Assembly: GCF_003790525.1 (NCBI RefSeq)
Contig: NZ_CP033635.1
Strand: one strand, 5' to 3'
DNA: 64,000 bases
Origin: Escherichia coli
GTDB lineage: Bacteria > Pseudomonadota > Gammaproteobacteria > Enterobacterales > Enterobacteriaceae
Shown here piece by piece: positions 3,149 through 57,013 of this stretch (its first letter is position 1; each line of letters starts with the position of its first letter). The position numbers and the translations under genes were made by a program. The notes under the pieces are model-generated. The model had not been told where the DNA came from. It searched no databases and saw only the letters and a program-made list of their open reading frames with translations.

Positions 3149-4013
3149 AATTTTCTAACTCCATTTTTCGAAAACAATGTGACAATAACAAATTGTTTTC
3201 ATAAAACACTTATCCAACATTAAGAATGAATACTTATAATCACCAGATGACATAACCATTACCATCTAATGGAATATATTTAAACTAATAAGATAAACTT
3301 AAAACGTGATATCAAGCACATTTTTATAACGTTAAAATTAGTGGGTTATTTAGCAATCAAATATAACCAGTAAAAGCCCGAAATATGCAGATAACGCTGC
3401 ACTAATATGATTAAGATCAAAAAAAACAATTCCGCAATCAAACTTATTATTAATGCTGATTTTTTAAATCATGATTAAGTAGAACTATTTTATAATAGCA
3501 TCCCGGTTTGGTCACATCCTTCAGAAAAACAACCTGTTTACCACCATAGAAAATCTATATCTCTGCTAGGTTTTCCAGCGTTGTAGATATAGTCACTCAT
3601 GGTGATTCTTATTAAGATAAGAGTTTTTACACGGGAATGTTATTGCACTTCTAATTGATAAATCTTGGAATAGAGTAGAAAACGTAATGTTTCCACTCCA
3701 TCTTCCGCTTTAATGGTTTGTAATTTGAGTTAGATCATGGATTTTAACATCCATTATGATTAATTATTTTTAGATGATTTGATCACTAAATCGTCTTTCA
3801 GGGTGTAACGGCATTAATCATCACAAGCTAAAAAAACGCCATACTGTAATGGAGTCTGTATTTTATGTTCAATCATGCAAAGGCTCTTCATAATTATCAT
3901 TTCTCTCTTGGAAAAATGACAGCCTGAACATAGCATAAATTCACGTTCTTCAGAGTCAGAAGGTGTTAATAAACTGTCCCTAAAATCTGGAAAATGTTGA
4001 AGAAGGCATCTCA
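3149..4013. promoter_or_regulatory. AT-rich divergent intergenic region between aspartase-like copy A (minus) and pepT-like gene (plus); likely carries both promoters
   Basis: about 865 bp without convincing ORF, strongly AT-rich, flanked by divergently oriented start codons. Confidence 0.3.
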
Positions 4014-48024: not shown

Positions 48025-49188
48025 GTGAGGTGTATTGTGGGAAAGGAACTGGATGATATCTGCACCAGCTGTCCGTATATCGATACTGTAAAACGGCACA
48101 AACAACAGCTCGGTGCCATAGAGGAATATACACAGTGGTTAAAAAAAGAACCACGGGCATCTTATTTTTTTCTGTTCCAGCTGTATACCCGCATTCACAA
48201 TACATTTTTCTCCCAAAAGCAACAACTCCCGTTCACTCCCGGTGGCACTCACTGCCCGGAACCTGATGTCACCCTTCGGGACTTAACGCTTTCCCCTGGC
48301 TACCACAGTGATTATGCCCCTCAACCCATTCCGGAGATGGACAGTTCTGCTGTTGTTCCCCCAACTAATGAAAACACCTCGCCTCCGGAAGATACTCCCG
48401 ACAACACTCCGGCCGGAGGCAATACCGGACAAGCGGAAAAGACCAGAAACGCAGGACTCACACCCATTCCTGAAAAACGTTCAGGAATGCCCCCGGAACA
48501 TCTGCGGTTTGCCACGGGGTTTCCATCGCAACCGAAGATTGCCGGTCCCAGAGAAAAGCCGATGCGCACCGTGCATCCGGATAAAATCTACCGTGAAATT
48601 ATATGGTTCTGCTCCAGTTACCTGCTGAAATCCGGACCAGAGGCTACGAGGACGATTATCAACTCAGTATTCTCTGAATGGGCCAGCATAAACAATGATT
48701 ACCCCTCCCCCTTTTCGTGGGTGGACAGCAGGGACAGTGAACAGTGTGACTGGTTATGGAACGCCATGCAGATCCGGTGTGTGGGAACCCCGCTGAATCC
48801 CCTTACCCCGGAGCAGAAATACTGGTTTGCCTGCGCCACGTTTGATAACTGGGAGGGCTGGAATGAGCAACAGGTACAGTTTTTACTGGAAAGTAATCCC
48901 AGACGGAACAGAGCGAAGTTTACGCAGGTCTCCTTCCAGGCCCCCAGGATTCAGCATAAAGCGATTCTTCTTGATGAGCTGAAAAGTGCCCGGGAGCAAC
49001 AAAAAAGGCGTGATGAACGTGCTGATGGTTCCGTCCCTCTGAAACTGTCCGGAAAAATCCACAAACAGCTTGAAAGTATTGCCCGAAGTCGTGGTGTCCT
49101 CCCAAAAAAACTGCTGAATGAAATGATTGAGCAGGCGTACCATGATTTGGTGGCAACCAGGCAGAACAGCCAAATCGATTCCAGATAA
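48025..49188 (+). CDS. hypothetical protein with Pro/Thr-rich low-complexity linker (island backbone, unknown function)
   Basis: 387-aa ORF ending 45-84 bp upstream of the YeeP-family GTPase gene; start codon uncertain. Confidence 0.5.
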   Translation: MRCIVGKELDDICTSCPYIDTVKRHKQQLGAIEEYTQWLKKEPRASYFFLFQLYTRIHNTFFSQKQQLPFTPGGTHCPEPDVTLRDLTLSPGYHSDYAPQPIPEMDSSAVVPPTNENTSPPEDTPDNTPAGGNTGQAEKTRNAGLTPIPEKRSGMPPEHLRFATGFPSQPKIAGPREKPMRTVHPDKIYREIIWFCSSYLLKSGPEATRTIINSVFSEWASINNDYPSPFSWVDSRDSEQCDWLWNAMQIRCVGTPLNPLTPEQKYWFACATFDNWEGWNEQQVQFLLESNPRRNRAKFTQVSFQAPRIQHKAILLDELKSAREQQKRRDERADGSVPLKLSGKIHKQLESIARSRGVLPKKLLNEMIEQAYHDLVATRQNSQIDSR

Positions 49189-49271
49189 TTTCAGACAGAT
49201 ATTATTTCCGTGAATCCCCCGCCACCTTTCCGGTGCGCGGGGTTTTGTCTTTTTTCACCGGGAATACATGT

Positions 49272-50144
49272 ATGAATCCGTCTGATGCCATTGAGGCAAT
49301 TGAAAAACCGCTCTCCTCCCTGCCTTACTCACTTTCCCGTCACATCCTGGAACATCTGCGCAAACTCACCAGTCACGAACCCGTGCCTGGCATTATGGGT
49401 AAAAGCGGGGCCGGTAAATCCTCACTCTGTAATGCGCTGTTTCAGGGGGAGATCACCCCGGTCAGTGATGTTCACGCCGGCACCCGGGAAGTGCAGCGCT
49501 TCCGTCTGAATGGCCATGGTCACAGCATGGTTATCACTGACCTGCCCGGGGTGGGCGAGAGCCGGGACAGGGATGCAGAGTATGAAGCCCTGTACCGTGA
49601 CATTCTGCCCGAACTGGACCTGGTACTGTGGCTGATTAAAGCCGATGACCGTGCCCTGTCTGTGGATGAGTATTTCTGGCGACACATCCTGCACCGGGGA
49701 CATCAGCGGGTACTGTTTGTGGTGATGCAGGCCGATAAAACGGAGCCCTGCCATGAATGGGATATGGCCGGTATTCAGCCTTCTCCCGCACAGGCACAGA
49801 ACATTCGCGAAAAAACGGAGGCGGTATTCCGTCTGTTCCGGCCCGTACATCGGGTTGTTGCCGTATCGGCCCGCACCGGCTGGGAACTGGATACGCTGGT
49901 CAGTGCGCTCATGACAGCACTTCCCGACCATGCCGCCAGTCCCCTGATGACCCGCCTGCAGGACGAGCTGCGCACGGAATCTGTCCGCGCTCAGGCCCGT
50001 GAACAGTTTACCGGTGCGGTGGACCGGATATTTGACACGGCGGAGAGCGCCTGTATTGCCTCTGTTGCACGCACGGTTCTGCGTGCCGTCCGTGACTCGG
50101 TGGTCTCTGTTGCCCGCGCGGTATGGAACTGGATTTTCTTCTGA
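49272..50144 (+). CDS. YeeP/YfjP/YkfA-family small GTPase (50S-ribosome-binding GTPase fold)
   Basis: P-loop GIMGKSGAGKSS, DLPG (G3) and Mxxx ADK-like G4; start taken at MNPSDAIEAIEKP. Confidence 0.8.
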   Translation: MNPSDAIEAIEKPLSSLPYSLSRHILEHLRKLTSHEPVPGIMGKSGAGKSSLCNALFQGEITPVSDVHAGTREVQRFRLNGHGHSMVITDLPGVGESRDRDAEYEALYRDILPELDLVLWLIKADDRALSVDEYFWRHILHRGHQRVLFVVMQADKTEPCHEWDMAGIQPSPAQAQNIREKTEAVFRLFRPVHRVVAVSARTGWELDTLVSALMTALPDHAASPLMTRLQDELRTESVRAQAREQFTGAVDRIFDTAESACIASVARTVLRAVRDSVVSVARAVWNWIFF

Positions 50145-50260
50145 ACCCGGTGGTGATGTACCAGGCTGTTGTTACAGATTTTTAACTCCATGAAAACACT
50201 ATGCAAACGCAGCCATACCCGGGTTGTCCCCTTGCGTTGTGTTTCTCAAGTTAATAGAAT

Positions 50261-50305
50261 GCATCGATCGTTACTATCATATCGATCGTTATAAACGATC
50301 GTTTG
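50261..50305. promoter_or_regulatory. cluster of three GATC-containing palindromic repeats (ATCGATCGTTA x2, AAACGATCGTTT) upstream of the dynamin-like operon; candidate Dam/OxyR-type phase-variation switch
   Basis: GATC at 50266, 50284 and 50297 within 35 bp, embedded in direct/palindromic repeats; sits where the agn43 (flu) regulatory region lies in CP4-44. Confidence 0.5.
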
Positions 50306-50361
50306 TAGTAAATGACCTCCTCCGTGGTTGTCATGAAAATGCGTCTTAGGAAGGTTAAATA

Positions 50362-52758
50362 ATGCACGAAAAGAACATCGCCCTGCTTTGTGATGAAGCC
50401 GACCGACTTTTGCAACTGAACATTAATCTGCTCCGGCAAATGGTTGAGGAGCCAGATGTGTTATCTGACAGTAAGAACGAAAACAGACTGCTTTTTGATA
50501 AACAGAAAGCACTGAAAAGAATTGAGGAGCTGGAGGGCGAACAAATCAAAACCGCCCGCAGGGAGATGGTGCTGGCTGTTGTCGGCACGATGAAAGCAGG
50601 CAAATCAACCACCATCAACGCCATTGTGGGGCAGGAAATTCTGCCTAACCGTAACCGCCCCATGACCTCTGTACCGACGCTCATCCGCCACGTTCCCGGA
50701 AAAACTGAGCCGGTTCTCCATCTGGAACATATTCAGCCTGTCCGCAATTTATTAATCACACTGCAGGAAAAACTCGCCACCCCGGCAGGACAGCAGGTCG
50801 CACAGACCCTGCAGCAAACCGGGGATACCCGCGAACTGCTGGATATTCTGACGGATGATGGCTGGCTCAAAAATGAATACCACGGGGAGGAGGAAATCTT
50901 TACCGGACTGGCATCGTTAAACGATCTGGTTCGTCTTGCTGCGGCAATGGGGACTGAATTTCCTTTTGATGAATACGCAGAAGTGCAGAAACTGCCGGTG
51001 ATCGACGTGGAATTCAGCCATCTGGTGGGGATGGATGCATGCCAGGGAACACTCACACTGCTGGATACCCCCGGCCCTAATGAGGCCGGACAACCGCAGA
51101 TGGAAGTGATGATGCGGGATCAACTGCAGAAAGCCTCTGCGGTTCTGGCTGTGATGGATTACACCCAGATGAACTCAAAAGCGGATGAAGACGTCCGTAA
51201 AGAGCTTAATGCCATTGCTGACGTATCAGCCGGCCGCCTGTTTGTACTGGTCAATAAATTTGATGAGAAAGACCGCAATGGCGATGGGGCAGATGCCGTA
51301 CGCCAGAAAGTTCCGGCAATGCTGAACAGCGATGTGCTGCCCGCCTCCCGCGTTTATCCCGGATCCTCACGCCAGGCATACCTGGCTAACCGTGCGCTTC
51401 ATGAGTTACGGAAAAACGGAACCCTTCCTGTTGATGAAGCCTGGGTCGATGATTTTATCAGAGGTGCCTTCGGTTGCATGAAAAAAGAATACGTCTGTAA
51501 AGACAGTGAACTGGCAACTGAAGGGGCGACAGACCTGTGGGAAGGCTCACTTATCGATCAACTGATAACGGAAGTCATACAGAGCTCACATTCCAGAGCT
51601 GCGGCACTGGCGGTTGACTCTGCCGCCGCAAAACTGATGCAGAATGCAGAAAATATCAGTGAATACCTGTTGTTACGCCATCAGGGGCTACAGCAAAGCA
51701 TTCAGTCACTGCAGTCGCATATCACCAGCCTGCTTGCGGATATCCGGGAAATCGCGGACTGTCAGGAGCAGATGACCACTGATGTCAGAATGGCCATGGA
51801 GGAGATCGATACTAAAACCCGGGAATTACTGACGGGGGTCTGCACCTCACTGGAAGAGGAGCTGAATGACTATTTCAGAAGCGGTAAACGCAAAGAACAG
51901 CAAATGCTGGAGGAAGAAGACGCAGAACAACGAAGGTCTCAGTCCGGATTATGGGGGAAAATTTCTCAATGGTCCGGTATCAACAACCAGGGCCGGGAGG
52001 ATTACAGGAAACGAGATTTTGCCCCGGACAGCCCCGAAATAAAATTCAGTGATCGCAGGGAAGCCCTTGAACTGATGACGCAAATCGAATCGACCGTGAC
52101 CAGCCTGCACCGTGAGGCTGAAGCACAGTTCCGGCCTGAGCTGGAGAAAATCGTCAGCGGGATTGAAACAGGTTTTCGTGGCACGGCCCTGTACGCCACA
52201 GAAAACATTGCCGGTCGCATCAATGCCCGCCTGGAGGATGAGGGCTTTACCGTAAAAATCAGTTTTCCGGCAGTCAGCCAGTTACAGACCCGGCTCGCGG
52301 TAAAAATAAATCTGAGTGCGCTTATGGAGGAAAGAACGGAGACCGTCACCCGTCGCCGTCGGCAGAGTGGCGTATGGGGAACCGTTTGTCGATGGTTTGG
52401 CACCAGTGACCTGGGCTGGGAAAACTATGACGAGGATGTGAGTCGCAGCGTGATCAATATCAACAAGGTCAGAGAGGAAGTTATGTCACTGACCCGGGCA
52501 TATTTCGGGGAGCTGCAGGCATCCATTGAGCAGGATATTAACCAGCCCGTCCGCCAGGAAATCGATGCCTTTTTCTGCGCATTCAGGGAGAAAGTTGAAC
52601 AACTGCGTAACACGCTGATTCAGAGCTCTGAAGATCATAAACGCGATCAGCAGGCGCAGGAACGGCTTACCGGGCGACTTCAGGCATTAAATGAAAGGGT
52701 TCCTGAGCTCATTACTGACAGTAAGGCGCTGAGGGAAGAGCTGGAGACAATGCTGTGA
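50362..52758 (+). CDS. dynamin-like GTPase (bacterial dynamin-like protein; CrfC/YjdA paralog)
   Basis: 798 aa; AGGAAGG RBS; P-loop GTMKAGKST (G75-S82), G3 LLDTPGPNEAGQ, G4 VLVNKFDE; N-terminal 330 aa closely parallel K-12 YjdA/CrfC as recalled; long coiled-coil C-terminal half. Confidence 0.85.
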   Translation: MHEKNIALLCDEADRLLQLNINLLRQMVEEPDVLSDSKNENRLLFDKQKALKRIEELEGEQIKTARREMVLAVVGTMKAGKSTTINAIVGQEILPNRNRPMTSVPTLIRHVPGKTEPVLHLEHIQPVRNLLITLQEKLATPAGQQVAQTLQQTGDTRELLDILTDDGWLKNEYHGEEEIFTGLASLNDLVRLAAAMGTEFPFDEYAEVQKLPVIDVEFSHLVGMDACQGTLTLLDTPGPNEAGQPQMEVMMRDQLQKASAVLAVMDYTQMNSKADEDVRKELNAIADVSAGRLFVLVNKFDEKDRNGDGADAVRQKVPAMLNSDVLPASRVYPGSSRQAYLANRALHELRKNGTLPVDEAWVDDFIRGAFGCMKKEYVCKDSELATEGATDLWEGSLIDQLITEVIQSSHSRAAALAVDSAAAKLMQNAENISEYLLLRHQGLQQSIQSLQSHITSLLADIREIADCQEQMTTDVRMAMEEIDTKTRELLTGVCTSLEEELNDYFRSGKRKEQQMLEEEDAEQRRSQSGLWGKISQWSGINNQGREDYRKRDFAPDSPEIKFSDRREALELMTQIESTVTSLHREAEAQFRPELEKIVSGIETGFRGTALYATENIAGRINARLEDEGFTVKISFPAVSQLQTRLAVKINLSALMEERTETVTRRRRQSGVWGTVCRWFGTSDLGWENYDEDVSRSVININKVREEVMSLTRAYFGELQASIEQDINQPVRQEIDAFFCAFREKVEQLRNTLIQSSEDHKRDQQAQERLTGRLQALNERVPELITDSKALREELETML

Positions 52759-53660
52759 CTTCACCATTTATTCAACAAATTGCTGATAACCGGGTATGTC
52801 AGGTACTCACCTGTCTTCCTGAAAAATTTGTGGTTGATTTCGCAAACGGAATCGATGTTGCACAGGAGCATATCCGCACGGCCGGAGAGCGCACGTTCTT
52901 CCGGCGTTTAAAAGAGGGGCTGACCGGCGAAGGCGCTGCACGGCAGAATGCCATCAATGCGTCGCTTGCACAGGGCGTTGAGGCGTCCCTGCGCTGGCTG
53001 ACGGAGATGACAACGTCACTTGCCACCACAAACTACGCGATTACCCGGGTAAACGACAGGGTCAGTTCACTGGTCAGTGATACAGCCAGGCTGGCGCATT
53101 ATTCCGCAGATACGCGGGAGCAGTTACTCACCCTGGCCGATCAGGTTCACCATAAACTGAATCATCTTGAAGAAAAACTCCACCGTGTTGACCAGGTTCA
53201 GCGGGCGCAGTTACATCTTGAGCAGATATTCTCATGGTGGAGCGCCGGGCGATATGCGTCATTTTCCCCTGCCGGACGTTGTTATGTGGCACTTGAAGAG
53301 CTTCGCTGGGGCGCGTTTGGTGATGTGATACGTCAGAGCGAAACAGGCCAGGTTAACCAGCTACTGGATATTCTCAGACATAAAGCATTAACGCAGATGG
53401 CACAGGAGAGTGGCGGTAGTGCAACCGTGCGTCTGAACACTCTGGACTGGCTTGGTGGTCAGGGCCGGGAGCAGGCAGATAACGAGTGGCATGACGCGAT
53501 TAACTGGCTGGGAGACTGGTGCAGTGAAGAGCAGCATCCGGTGATCTGGTCAACCACGCAGGCTGCAGAACACTTACCGGTTCGCATGCCTCGCCTCTGC
53601 TCTGCAGAACGCCTCTCTGAAAGTATGGTCGATGAAATATTTCAGAAGGGGGCTGCATGA
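52755..53660 (+). CDS. YjcZ-like protein (partner of dynamin-like GTPase), unknown function
   Basis: 301 aa; GTG start overlapping upstream stop (GTGA); same gene order as yjdA-yjcZ in K-12. Confidence 0.6.
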   Translation: MTSPFIQQIADNRVCQVLTCLPEKFVVDFANGIDVAQEHIRTAGERTFFRRLKEGLTGEGAARQNAINASLAQGVEASLRWLTEMTTSLATTNYAITRVNDRVSSLVSDTARLAHYSADTREQLLTLADQVHHKLNHLEEKLHRVDQVQRAQLHLEQIFSWWSAGRYASFSPAGRCYVALEELRWGAFGDVIRQSETGQVNQLLDILRHKALTQMAQESGGSATVRLNTLDWLGGQGREQADNEWHDAINWLGDWCSEEQHPVIWSTTQAAEHLPVRMPRLCSAERLSESMVDEIFQKGAA

Positions 53661-54727
53661 GTACAGAAATGAAAACGGGGCTGGTGCTGTCCGGTGGCGG
53701 GGCGGTGGGCGCTTATCAGGCGGGAGTGGTTAAGGCACTGGCAGAGTGTGGTACACAGATCAGCATGGTTTCAGGGGCCAGCATTGGCGCATTCAATGGT
53801 GCCATTATCGCGGCCTCTACCGATCTGTCAGAAGCTGCCGTACGCCTGGAGGCGCTCTGGGATCATCTGGGGAATAATCAGGTGCTGTCGGTAAACAGAT
53901 TGGTTTACTTTTCATTGCTGAAAAAATTGTTCCAGGCAATGAACCTCTGCCAGATCCCCGGACGTGCAGGAGCACTGCTTACGACGCTTCTTCGCCATAT
54001 ATCGACAATCAACGGGTTTGACAATCTGATGGCTCAGCCGTTGTTGTCAGATGAGCCCCTGACAGCGCTGATGGATCATTATCTTGATACTGATGCTCTG
54101 GCAGACGGGCTACCGCTGTATGTGTCGCTGTACCCCACAGAAGGGGGCATGCAGGATATTATTGACTGCATTCGTGCTGAACTGGGTGTCGGAACCACGA
54201 AAAACGCCGTTTTTCAGCATATCCAGAGCCTGCCCCGCGGACAGCAGAAAGAGGCTCTGCTTGCGTCAGCCGCGCTGCCCCTGCTGTTCCGTCCCCGTGA
54301 GGTTCAGGGGACAATGTTCGGTGATGGTGGTATGGGAGGATGGCGAAATATGCAGGGAAATACCCCTGTGACGCCTCTGGTCGATGCCGGATGCAATATG
54401 GTGATTGTGACGCATCTGAGTGACGGTTCTTTATGGGATCGCCAGGCTTTTCCGGACACCACAATCCTTGAGATCCGTCCCCGGAAAAGGCTGAAATATG
54501 CAGGTGATGGTGGCAACAGCGGCGGTCTGCTCAGTTTTACATCGGCACATACCGACGCCTGGCGTCAGCAGGGCTATGAAGACACGATGCTGGCGATGGA
54601 GCATATCCGGAAACCGCTGGCAGCACGTCAGGCACTGACCCGGTCAGAGGCGGTATTGCAGAAAAGCCTGGATATAACGGAAGAGGCAGATTTGGCACTG
54701 AGAAACGCGATGGCCCGGATTAAATAA
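53657..54727 (+). CDS. patatin-like phospholipase
   Basis: 356 aa; oxyanion/glycine-rich loop GLVLSGGGAVGAYQAG, nucleophile elbow GASIG (Ser42), catalytic Asp motif FGDGGM; ATG overlaps upstream stop (ATGA). Confidence 0.85.
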   Translation: MSTEMKTGLVLSGGGAVGAYQAGVVKALAECGTQISMVSGASIGAFNGAIIAASTDLSEAAVRLEALWDHLGNNQVLSVNRLVYFSLLKKLFQAMNLCQIPGRAGALLTTLLRHISTINGFDNLMAQPLLSDEPLTALMDHYLDTDALADGLPLYVSLYPTEGGMQDIIDCIRAELGVGTTKNAVFQHIQSLPRGQQKEALLASAALPLLFRPREVQGTMFGDGGMGGWRNMQGNTPVTPLVDAGCNMVIVTHLSDGSLWDRQAFPDTTILEIRPRKRLKYAGDGGNSGGLLSFTSAHTDAWRQQGYEDTMLAMEHIRKPLAARQALTRSEAVLQKSLDITEEADLALRNAMARIK

Positions 54728-54859
54728 AGACGCCCCAAAGAAACGCCACCGCCTGTGGTGGTGTTTTTCCTGTCTGGTGTTATTGAAAATATTTTCAGAT
54801 ATATATTACCTGAGAGAAAGTTTTACCCCTCACCTGTCAATTCACTCACTGGAAATTTA

Positions 54860-55546
54860 ATTATGAAATTACCTGTAAAGTTATTAATGAGCCTTATATC
54901 TCTGGTCAGCGTTATTGCACGTGCCGGGGAATATAAAAATTACAGCCGGGATGAAATAAAATACTGGCGATATACATCATACAAGGGGGGGAAACTTCCG
55001 GAAGGTTTCACTGATGAGAAATTTTCCAGCGCCATTTACAACGGAAGAATATTTACAATGAAACGTTTACATACCCTTATGTTATTTCTGGCGGTTCTGT
55101 TCACGGGCTTTAACTTTAACGCAGAAGCGGCTACCGTAAAACAAGCTCTTAGTTGTAACCCGGAAGCCTGGGCTGAACAACCTGGAGCGTGTCCATCAAC
55201 GTACGAGTTGTACGAAGGTGACGCTACCTACAAAGCCGCTATCGACAAAGCATTAAAACCGGTCGGACTGAGCGGCATGTTCGGTAAAGGCGGCTATATG
55301 GATGGCCCTGGTGGAGGTATCACGCCAGTAAACATTAACGGTACAGTCTGGTTCCAGGGCGACGGTTGCAAAGCCAATACCTGCGGCTGGGACTTTATCG
55401 TAACACTCTATAACCCAAAAACCCATGAAGTTGTTGGCTACCGTTACTTTGGTTTAGATGACCCGGCCTACCTGGTTTGGTTCGGTGAAATTGGCGTGCA
55501 TGAATTCGCGTATCTGGTGAAAAACTACGTAGCTGCGGTTAACTAA
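54860..55546 (+). CDS. secreted/periplasmic protein of unknown function (possibly lysozyme-inhibitor-like); start uncertain (alternative ATG at 55060)
   Basis: in-frame ORF with two signal-peptide-like segments (MKLPVKLLMSLISLVSVIARA and MKRLHTLMLFLAVLFTGFNFNAEA); Cys-containing C-terminal domain. Confidence 0.45.
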   Translation: MMKLPVKLLMSLISLVSVIARAGEYKNYSRDEIKYWRYTSYKGGKLPEGFTDEKFSSAIYNGRIFTMKRLHTLMLFLAVLFTGFNFNAEAATVKQALSCNPEAWAEQPGACPSTYELYEGDATYKAAIDKALKPVGLSGMFGKGGYMDGPGGGITPVNINGTVWFQGDGCKANTCGWDFIVTLYNPKTHEVVGYRYFGLDDPAYLVWFGEIGVHEFAYLVKNYVAAVN

Positions 55547-55561
55547 TTTAAGGAGTCTATC

Positions 55562-55972
55562 ATGAAAACTTTTATCAAAACTTTACTCGTTGCTGTAACT
55601 ATTCTGTTCTCTGTCTTCGCTACTGCGAAACAAGTAAAACTGCCAAATAACATCAAATACGTTAATACTACAGAAGCGTTTTCCTGTACCGAAATTGACG
55701 GTATGAATTGCCAGACAAAGAATCAGTTCAACTATAAAGATAACAGCTATGTTTTCGTGCTTGAGCGTGGTGGTGCCTGGTGCTACGACTACACTGTCTC
55801 GGTAGTTAACCTGAAAACCGGGAAAGCACAAATGATTGAATACGGGGACAATCAACTGTGCTCAGGTAGCAACAAACCGTTCTTCGAAATCAAAAATGGC
55901 GTACCGACGGTAGGAGTCATCGACACATCCGGAAAACCTGTCGTTGTAGCCCAGGACAAACTTAAAATCTAA
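55562..55972 (+). CDS. small secreted protein of unknown function (signal peptide, 6 Cys)
   Basis: AAGGAG RBS; MKTFIKTLLVAVTILFSVFATA signal peptide; 136 aa. Confidence 0.6.
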   Translation: MKTFIKTLLVAVTILFSVFATAKQVKLPNNIKYVNTTEAFSCTEIDGMNCQTKNQFNYKDNSYVFVLERGGAWCYDYTVSVVNLKTGKAQMIEYGDNQLCSGSNKPFFEIKNGVPTVGVIDTSGKPVVVAQDKLKI

Positions 55973-56192
55973 GGAGTAAACCATGCGTTTCTCTGCACAT
56001 TATTAATATCAAAGGTAAATACAGCCCCAGCCATTGTTACCGGAAAGCCGCTTAATGCGTGGCTCGCCAGTGAAAGGCCTCTCAGACAATAAACCTTATT
56101 CATTTCACCCGTCAGGCCGCGTCTTCTCCGGGAGACGCGGCTTTTTTCATTTATTGCACCAGTAAATCTTAACCACCGATAAGGAGCAAAGT

Positions 56193-57013
56193 ATGCGATT
56201 AGCCAGTCGTTTTGGTTATGCTGCAAACCAGATACGCCGTGACCGTCCGCTGACACATGAAGAACTGATACGCCATGTACCCAGTATTTTTGGGGAAGAC
56301 CGGCACATCTCCCGCAGTGAACGGTATGCGTACATTCCCACCATTACCGTCCTGGAAAATCTGCAGCGGGAAGGCTTTCAGCCGTTCTTCGCCTGCCAGA
56401 CCCGTGTGCGCGACCCGGGCCGCCGGGGATACACAAAACACATGCTGCGTCTGCGGCGGGCCGGAGAGATAAACGGAGAACATGTCCCTGAAATTATTCT
56501 GCTCAACTCTCATGACGGTACCTCCAGCTACCAGATGCTGCCGGGTTACTTCAGGTTCGTCTGCCAGAACGGGTGCGTCTGTGGCCAGTCTCTGGGGAAG
56601 TGCGTGTTCCACACCGGGGAAATGTAGTGGAGAAAGTTATCGAAGGGGCTTACGAGGTGGTGGGCGTGTTTGACCGGATAGAGGAGAAGCGTGATGCCAT
56701 GCAGTCGCTGGTCCTGCCGCCACCGGCACGCCAGGCGCTGGCACAGGCGGCACTGACTTACCGTTATGGTGACGAACATCAGCCCGTCACCACCGCCGAC
56801 ATTCTGACGCCGCGACGCCGGGAGGATTACGGTAAGGACCTGTGGAGCGCATATCAGACCATCCAGGAGAATATGCTGAAAGGCGGGATTTCCGGTCGCA
56901 GTGCCAGAGGAAAACGTATCCATACCCGGGCCATTCACAGCATTGATACCGACATTAAGCTCAATCGCGCATTGTGGGTGATGGCAGAAACGATGCTGGA
57001 GAGCCTGCGCTGA
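56193..57013 (+). pseudogene. DUF932 (YfjQ/YafZ-family) gene, frameshifted
   Basis: two overlapping ORFs (56193-56627, 56573-57013) in different frames; LLNSHDGTSSYQ motif. Confidence 0.6.

Follow-up and report, generated by a model that had tools for sequence, protein, structure and literature searches.

The DNA analyzed here, referred to as the window, is a stretch of 64,000 nucleotides from Escherichia coli (NCBI RefSeq assembly GCF_003790525.1, contig NZ_CP033635.1) that carries two small open reading frames (ORFs), ORF A and ORF B, 3' of a gene for a patatin-like phospholipase. All features given below lie on the + strand unless stated otherwise. A sequence-only reading of the window had placed the two ORFs at 54860-55972 and described their products as secreted, Cys-containing proteins. 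We found both ORFs, and the end of this stretch at 55972 was right, but ORF A has its first ATG at 54863 and not at 54860. As annotated by the Prokaryotic Genome Annotation Pipeline (PGAP), ORF A spans 54863-55546 and encodes 227 amino acids (WP_000775500.1). ORF B (55562-55972) encodes 136 amino acids (WP_000846713.1) and, as had been noticed, is preceded by a strong ribosome-binding site, AAGGAG, at 55550-55555, 6 nt ahead of its ATG. The tandem in-frame signal-like segments described for ORF A were also observed, at residues 1-21 (MKLPVKLLMSLISLVSVIARA, predicted cleavage before G) and at residues 66-89 (MKRLHTLMLFLAVLFTGFNFNAEA, predicted cleavage before A), and ORF B starts with a signal peptide at residues 1-22 (MKTFIKTLLVAVTILFSVFATA, predicted cleavage before K). 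In all three segments a basic N-terminus precedes a hydrophobic core, which is followed by an AXA cleavage motif; the assignments were judged by inspection, from the pattern of n-, h- and c-regions and from the AXA motif. Both proteins are of the secreted type, with Sec-type signal peptides, and contain four Cys each, invariant or almost so within each family. Ratios of nonsynonymous to synonymous substitution rates (dN/dS) were 0.11-0.23 for ORF A and ORF B in comparison with homologues as distant as 59-65% amino-acid identity, and the A+B pair was present in 2408 of the 5426 complete E. coli genomes, at 2893 places. These two results show that the ORFs did not arise by chance and confirm that ORF A and ORF B are genuine genes under purifying selection. 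The lineages that carry the pair include O157, O121, O103, extraintestinal pathogenic E. coli (ExPEC) and enterohaemorrhagic E. coli (EHEC), from human and animal isolates.

Comparison with homologues indicates that the conserved ORF A unit starts at the second Met, at 55058, and that the N-terminal extension (54863-55057, the first signal-like segment and a further 44 amino acids) probably lies outside the functional protein. This unit (55058-55546) encodes 162 amino acids, with a signal peptide at residues 1-24 (55058-55129) that by inspection consists of MKR, a hydrophobic core and AEA, cleaved before A. The phage homologues described below, and many of those from E. coli, are 160-161 amino acids long, start with MKRLHTLM and do not have the first segment. 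The DNA similarity to the phage copies starts approximately 7-11 nt before the ATG at 55058 (55047/55051) and stops approximately 25-30 nt past the ORF B stop codon (55996/56004). The upstream 65 codons of ORF A are specific to E. coli islands, and searches of the phage loci, of PHROGs and of the rest of the window gave no homologue of them. Between island variants the extension showed 7 nonsynonymous differences versus 1 synonymous difference; it is frameshifted in locus L011, where the short ORF A is intact, and it keeps 97-98% nucleotide identity where ORF A and ORF B fall to 79-85%. The 227-amino-acid gene model in the annotation probably carries a wrong start. By topology rules, translation from 54863 would leave the second hydrophobic segment embedded in the membrane, with the disulfide-bearing domain facing the wrong side. 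A membrane-anchored 227-amino-acid form was considered and rejected, since the homologues do not have the extension and since, once the first signal is cleaved, the second hydrophobic segment would leave the disulfide-containing domain, an Ivy domain as presented below, in the cytoplasm.

That the extension evolves without coding constraint would also fit a view of the pair as decaying passenger DNA, the relic of a phage fragment without current function in E. coli. Insertion sequence (IS) insertions, a stop codon and deletion chimeras, all described below, would agree with such decay, and a scan for sigma-70 promoters upstream of the pair gave no consensus candidate. However, dN/dS stays at 0.11-0.23 for both genes, between E. 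coli alleles too, intact copies of the pair are present in about 40% of the complete E. coli genomes, and a knockdown phenotype has been reported. We therefore consider a relic quite improbable.

Family scans of ORF A and ORF B with Pfam and NCBIfam gave nothing useful, no defence hidden Markov model (HMM) of PADLOC-DB 2.0 matched either protein at E <= 0.01, and word-indexed homologue searches with both returned close relatives only. With the ORF A family as the query profile, 58 relatives were recovered from 1.84 billion representative proteins. Among 35 aligned members of this family, 30 matched the Pfam Ivy family PF08816 (best E 7.6e-12), and hhalign of the broad family alignment against E. 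coli Ivy gave a probability of 97% (E 1.4e-10); residues 39-86 of the Ivy sequence used agree with the PDB chain. In a profile search of PDB sequences, Ivy was found at E = 1 only, yet with an exact alignment at the CKxxxCG loop. The AlphaFold2 model of ORF A had a predicted local distance difference test score (pLDDT) of 89.6 and a predicted template modelling score (pTM) of 0.81. When this model was compared with the PDB using Foldseek, the top 8 matches were all Ivy structures (4PS6, 1UUZ, 1XS0, 1GPQ), with E from 6.5e-5 to 1e-2, a probability of 1.00 and a target-normalised template modelling score of 0.63-0.73, and the next match had E > 1. Taken together, the family profiles and the modelled Ivy fold, in which helices flank a central antiparallel sheet, identify ORF A as a divergent Ivy. 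The two ORFs had been suggested to be, among other options, island cargo resembling lysozyme inhibitors, and for ORF A this idea is borne out.

The Cys residues of ORF A, in short-form numbering, are Cys33, Cys45, Cys104 and Cys109, and the last two are invariant in the subfamily. The protein contains a C-x4-C hairpin loop, CKANTC (55367-55384), as the counterpart of the inhibitory CKPHDC loop of Ivy; in the model this loop lies between strands E96-104 and E112-119, and a disulfide is predicted. The C-x4-C loop is conserved throughout the ORF A family. Other alleles carry CKANAC, CKSNAC, CKSDAC or CKAHAC, and C-x-x-H-x-C is kept in most outgroup relatives. The His of CKPHDC is, according to the Ivy literature, the residue that enters the active site of lysozyme. 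ORF A thus counts as an Ivy on the grounds of fold and ancestry, and as a variant on the grounds of the motif that this literature connects with lysozyme inhibition.

The Ivy fold and family of ORF A suggest the classical role of Ivy as an explanation: ORF A, perhaps with ORF B, would shield the cell wall from the lysozymes of animal hosts and act as a colonisation or virulence accessory, unrelated to phage. The frequency of the pair in human and animal isolates, EHEC and ExPEC included, is consistent with such a role, as is the loop His kept in some alleles (CKAHAC). However, the allele of the window does not have this His, the cassette is also found in jumbo phages of lytic type, which would gain nothing from resistance to animal lysozymes, and the sole phenotype reported concerns phage plating. 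In addition, ivy, mliC and pliG are already present on the E. coli chromosome. This role consequently appears unlikely, and if the pair were ordinary lysozyme-tolerance cargo, the finding would be a minor one.

ORF B matched the phrog_8968 HMM at E 2.6e-45, residues 1-131 being aligned on profile positions 1-133 of 135. Its relatives in protein searches were restricted to Enterobacteriaceae and to contigs of approximately 220-226 kb, and tblastn with ORF B detected 40 phage records, all of them jumbo phages of Salmonella, Erwinia, Escherichia and Proteus. SPN3US gp182 was 37% identical to ORF B (tblastn, E 1e-9). This phage protein is one of a series of small proteins with signal peptides, in which its neighbours gp181 (phrog_17072) and gp183 (phrog_5248) are paralogues of the ORF B family (hhalign, 95% probability, E ~1e-8); BLASTP of ORF B against the phage neighbour gave no match, and the paralogy emerged from profiles only. 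No match to ORF B was obtained in an alignment search of 100,044 species-representative genomes or in a PDB sequence search, and the fold search returned no informative match. Neither the Pfam families nor the folds of the lysozyme inhibitors MliC/PliC, PliI and PliG matched ORF B, and a literature search on SPN3US gp180-183 and on YfjT/YkfB did not return functional data. Overall, ORF B is a member of the jumbo-phage family phrog_8968, and its mature product is an all-beta protein with four Cys. We also considered a type VI secretion system or an array of orphan immunity genes and rejected both, since the array is part of phage genomes.

ORF A and ORF B were found together, within this array, in IMG/VR viral contigs of 220-225 kb and in a '222-kb plasmid' of Enterobacter ludwigii (locus L003, NZ_CP134650.1), where they share 59-76% (ORF A) and 65-76% (ORF B) amino-acid identity with the proteins of the window. 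The E. ludwigii element ('plasmid unnamed1', 222 kb, in PLSDB) is syntenic with SPN3US and carries the promoter-like motif described below, and its SMC-like protein is 69% identical to the counterparts in Erwinia jumbo phages; it has the appearance of a phiKZ-like jumbo phage whose genome was entered as a plasmid. Comparable contigs of approximately 221-226 kb recur in isolate and metagenome data. By tblastn, ORF A had no match in 50,697 phage records, so the Ivy-like gene is absent from the deposited phages of that set, and its phage sightings come from uncultivated genomes of approximately 220-225 kb only.

Upstream of the pair, at 54782-54822, we observed a 41-bp match to an intergenic element of these phages. 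It comprises a 15-nt core, TCAGATATATATTAC (54794-54808), and an upstream part, ATTGAAAATATTT, and it lies 55 nt ahead of the first ATG. In jumbo-phage contigs of approximately 224-246 kb the core is present in 3-6 copies, all on one strand and usually about 45-75 nt upstream of a start codon, compared to a chance expectation of approximately 0.0005 per genome; the extended consensus in the phages is ATTAAAAATAATT, the core and CTAGGTGAGA. Jumbo phages that encode their own RNA polymerases each have a conserved AT-rich motif upstream of early operons (review, PMC7598289). From its sequence and placement, the TCAGATATATATTAC motif is probably an early promoter of Seoulvirus. The position of the pair behind this repeated motif would fit a task in keeping the infected cell intact, and one could propose that A+B control the lytic transglycosylases or autolysins of their own cell, as has been suggested for Ivy and MltB, and stabilise the wall until lysis when expressed from a phage. 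Partial inhibition of E. coli lytic transglycosylases by Ivy, and by MliC, has been obtained in vitro (PMC10139938). Such housekeeping control is nonetheless difficult to reconcile with an accessory gene that is often disrupted without obvious cost, and it would leave the T7 plating phenotype unexplained; we regard it as improbable, to about the same degree as the relic.

Within E. coli, comparison of the alleles shows that A+B is an exchangeable mobile cassette. The flanks in strain 07_3636 share 96-100% nucleotide identity with the window, compared to 85% for ORF A and 79% for ORF B, and between the window and ATCC 25922 the dS was 0.20-0.23 in A and B versus 0.023 in the patatin gene. The promoter-like motif is itself part of the island backbone, kept in 'empty' variants and in variants with alternative cargo, and the homology breakpoint falls just after it (54808-54812). 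The variable slot, for which no strand applies, extends from the motif to the region upstream of a DUF932 gene (54813-56039), as delimited by the breakpoints with loci L002 and L009. Here it holds the N-terminal extension, ORF A and ORF B; the EDL933-type copy has approximately 110 bp of unrelated sequence, and 77 genomes carry a YfjT/YkfB-family gene, a DUF4339 gene and a third phrog_8968 lineage, which is 36-38% identical to the window type and to the SPN3US type alike. The YfjT-like protein of the slot is 30% identical to the product of the first gene of the phage array (pairwise E 3e-23), and on account of this homology the whole slot looks like a mosaic of one jumbo-phage operon. Homologues of this YfjT-like, phage-array kind lie at 2511-2969 of locus L137, 3894-4067 of L009 and 7113-7574 of L003, and the YfjT/YkfB homology ties genes of K-12 cryptic prophages to jumbo phages.

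The patatin gene (53657-54727) lies directly 5' of the pair, and the sequence-only reading had raised the possibility that the two small proteins are immunity or inhibitor proteins for this phospholipase. At least 1836 genomes carry the 3' end of the patatin gene, the spacer and ORF A as one uninterrupted stretch, and the number rises when the IS-split form of sequence type 131 (ST131) is included. Furthermore, the same slot beside patatin holds a very distant homologue of ORF B in another island variant. However, the compartments differ: the patatin protein, which opens with the GGGxxG glycine-rich region of the active site, lacks a signal peptide, and the two small proteins are predicted to be exported. 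A terminator-like hairpin with a T-run (54747-54771; 7-pair stem with 5 GC pairs, TTTTT tail) separates the patatin operon from the pair, its stem (54747-54763) beginning 20 nt past the patatin stop codon at 54727. The patatin gene was not near A+B in any viral contig or in the E. ludwigii locus. Conversely, it occurs in 2586 genomes at 3368 places, compared to the 2893 places of the pair, and its copy in the EDL933-type locus is without A+B. In addition, ORF A has been inactivated while patatin is intact: in ST131 it is split by ISEc12, of the IS21 family, at ~55203 (locus L005, 4087-7350), with ORF B also intact, and in strain 07_3636 it has a premature stop. Finally, ORF A belongs to an unrelated inhibitor family, Ivy. 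An immunity function toward patatin is thus already largely refuted, and we consider it hardly credible. The co-occurrence that the earlier reading had asked to be checked is tight within E. coli islands and does not hold beyond them, as shown by the pair without patatin in phages and by patatin without the pair; the linkage results from common residence in one island family.

A link with phage infection had been made before. In a 2024 bioRxiv preprint, 'Hypo_04657' of E. coli O121 was described as Ivy-like, with 'CKANTC' replacing CKPHDC, and inhibition of phage lysozyme was proposed; upon its knockdown, the efficiency of plating of T7 on O121 went from 0 to ~1.0-1.5 (10.1101/2024.04.20.590424). 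The CRISPR interference (CRISPRi) guide targeting 'hypo_04657', GGGAATATAAAAATTACAGC, matches the window exactly at 54927-54946, which identifies Hypo_04657 as the ORF A gene. In contrast to the present analysis, the 227-amino-acid long form was modelled there and the hydrophobic segments were read as a transmembrane domain; ORF B, the patatin island context, the jumbo-phage origin and the promoter motif were not mentioned, and cytoplasmic T7 lysozyme was proposed as the target. The virion transglycosylase gp16 of T7 would be a likelier periplasmic target than this cytoplasmic lysozyme. The Ivy likeness of ORF A and a phage phenotype were therefore already known from the preprint, and the corrected start, the family of ORF B, the jumbo-phage cassette with its promoter-like motif, the allelic exchange and the variable slot are new.

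We propose that A+B constitute a periplasmic module, derived from phage, that hinders phage entry in a manner resembling superinfection exclusion. This proposal draws on analogy, and we consider its chances of being correct to be about even. Its precedents are the inhibition of the gp5 lysozyme by T4 Spackle (PMC7677548) and that of lytic transglycosylases by Ivy (PMC10139938). ORF A (from 55058) and ORF B would be exported by the Sec pathway as disulfide-bonded periplasmic proteins; the two-gene cassette that encodes them is akin to an operon for small periplasmic proteins that Seoulvirus-like jumbo phages carry. The disulfide-clamped CKANTC loop of ORF A would enter a periplasmic peptidoglycan-cleaving enzyme, which ORF A would bind and block, and ORF B may act beside ORF A in the same compartment. 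In phage and bacterium alike, the task of the pair would be to disable the machinery with which an incoming phage degrades the wall or crosses the envelope. That the genes are real, carry export signals, are connected with phages and are independent of patatin is shown, as are the fold and family of ORF A; which enzyme ORF A targets, what ORF B does and whether the pair acts against phage are the parts of this scheme that we infer.

Several observations weigh against this proposal. The window protein itself did not match Pfam Ivy PF08816, either in the long form (at E <= 1) or in the 162-amino-acid short form (at E <= 0.1), and the close ORF A subfamily alone gave a probability of 43% against E. 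coli Ivy (hhalign, E 2.5e-4). Since CKANTC is without the His of the Ivy motif, ORF A of the window may not inhibit any muramidase. The disruption of ORF A in ST131 and in 07_3636 shows that it is dispensable in successful lineages, and the promoter assignment was deduced from the pattern of the motif. Moreover, inhibition of the T7 gp16 transglycosylase would not be expected to produce a complete block. As for the T7 phenotype, CRISPRi is polar and would silence the short ORF A together with ORF B, so that their effects are inseparable; the specificity is uncertain, since 18 of the 26 knockdowns tested were near an efficiency of plating of 1, unrelated genes included; and the rescue comes from a preprint and is uncomplemented (10.1101/2024.04.20.590424).

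A bolder form of the proposal, which we hold to be rather unlikely, is that the captured early operon of a phiKZ-like jumbo phage constitutes a new periplasmic anti-phage barrier in ~40% of E. coli strains. This barrier could stop T7 infection altogether, and ORF B, or both proteins together, would block envelope crossing in addition to any lysozyme-directed activity. The retained jumbo-phage promoter might also let the polymerase of an infecting jumbo phage switch the cassette on. If the pair does block phage entry in the periplasm, it would represent a very common and uncatalogued defence module of E. coli (~2400 of 5426 complete genomes), with a bearing on the host range of phages used in therapy. 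It would also widen the Ivy family from 'anti-animal-lysozyme' to 'anti-phage' proteins, with phage-encoded members, and give a first functional handle on the small-secreted-protein array of Seoulvirus and on the related YfjT/YkfB of K-12 cryptic prophages.

The pair belongs to an E. coli island of the CP4-44 type. The gene order on its 5' side is a hypothetical gene (48025-49188), a GTPase gene (49233-50144), a dynamin-family protein gene (50362-52758), a YjcZ/RdcB-family protein gene (52755-53660) and the patatin gene. From the GTPase gene to the patatin gene (49233-54727), stop and start codons overlap. This set was found in 2586 of the 5426 E. coli genomes; it shows weak similarity to LeoBC/LeoA (Eleos) and to phospholipase models of the cyclic-oligonucleotide-based antiphage signalling system (CBASS) and is a candidate membrane-acting defence system. 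On the 3' side, ORF B is followed by a strong terminator-like hairpin with a T-run (56114-56153, 13 pairs), conserved in the island backbone, and then by DUF932, antirestriction, RadC/YeeS, YeeT, CbeA and CbtA genes, before the chromosomal yeeA-sbmC-dacD. An Rfam search of 54400-56400 gave no match.

Some further observations concern the integrity of the island. In the DUF932 gene (56193-57013), a G-run at ~56594 has lost 1 bp (G5 to G4) in comparison with the intact 273-amino-acid gene of strain FDAARGOS_497 (locus L001), and two overlapping ORFs result; the gene is probably a pseudogene or reflects a sequencing error. Among the predicted proteins, P0015, P0021 and P0094 are chimeric, the N-terminus of the dynamin or YjcZ protein being fused to ORF A, or ORF A to DUF932/RadC, and these chimeras indicate recurrent deletions within the island in some strains or assemblies. 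The patatin-A-B region is also found, 99.5-99.9% identical to the E. coli copy, in 'plasmids' of Klebsiella pneumoniae (NZ_CP079635.1) and K. oxytoca (NZ_LR890315.1); these records could represent a recent transfer between genera, or they could be mis-assigned or contaminated.

Compared with known systems, ORF B is closest to phrog_8968 and SPN3US gp182, with which it shares the length, the signal peptide, the four-Cys pattern and the position in the phage array, although the island protein is only 31-32% identical to the copies of cultured phages. MliC/PliC, PliI and PliG, being small, periplasmic and beta-rich, were a natural guess for ORF B. For the pair as a whole, the working analogy is Spackle of phage T4, which is made early, resides in the periplasm and inhibits the gp5 lysozyme (PMC7677548). 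The sequence of Spackle has no detected relationship to A or B, it was not among the fold-search matches, and the functional likeness is hypothetical; the likeness would consist in a small, phage-encoded, early-expressed inhibitor with a signal peptide, directed at the peptidoglycan hydrolase of an incoming phage. ORF A resembles Ivy in its predicted periplasmic location, its mature length of ~140 amino acids and its fold, and its C-x4-C loop and following Gly align residue for residue with CKPHDCG. It differs from Ivy in that its loop has Asn for His and Ala for Pro, in its additional N-terminal Cys pair (C33, C45), in alleles that span 58-99% amino-acid identity within one species, and in its location in a phage-type cassette with a partner gene.

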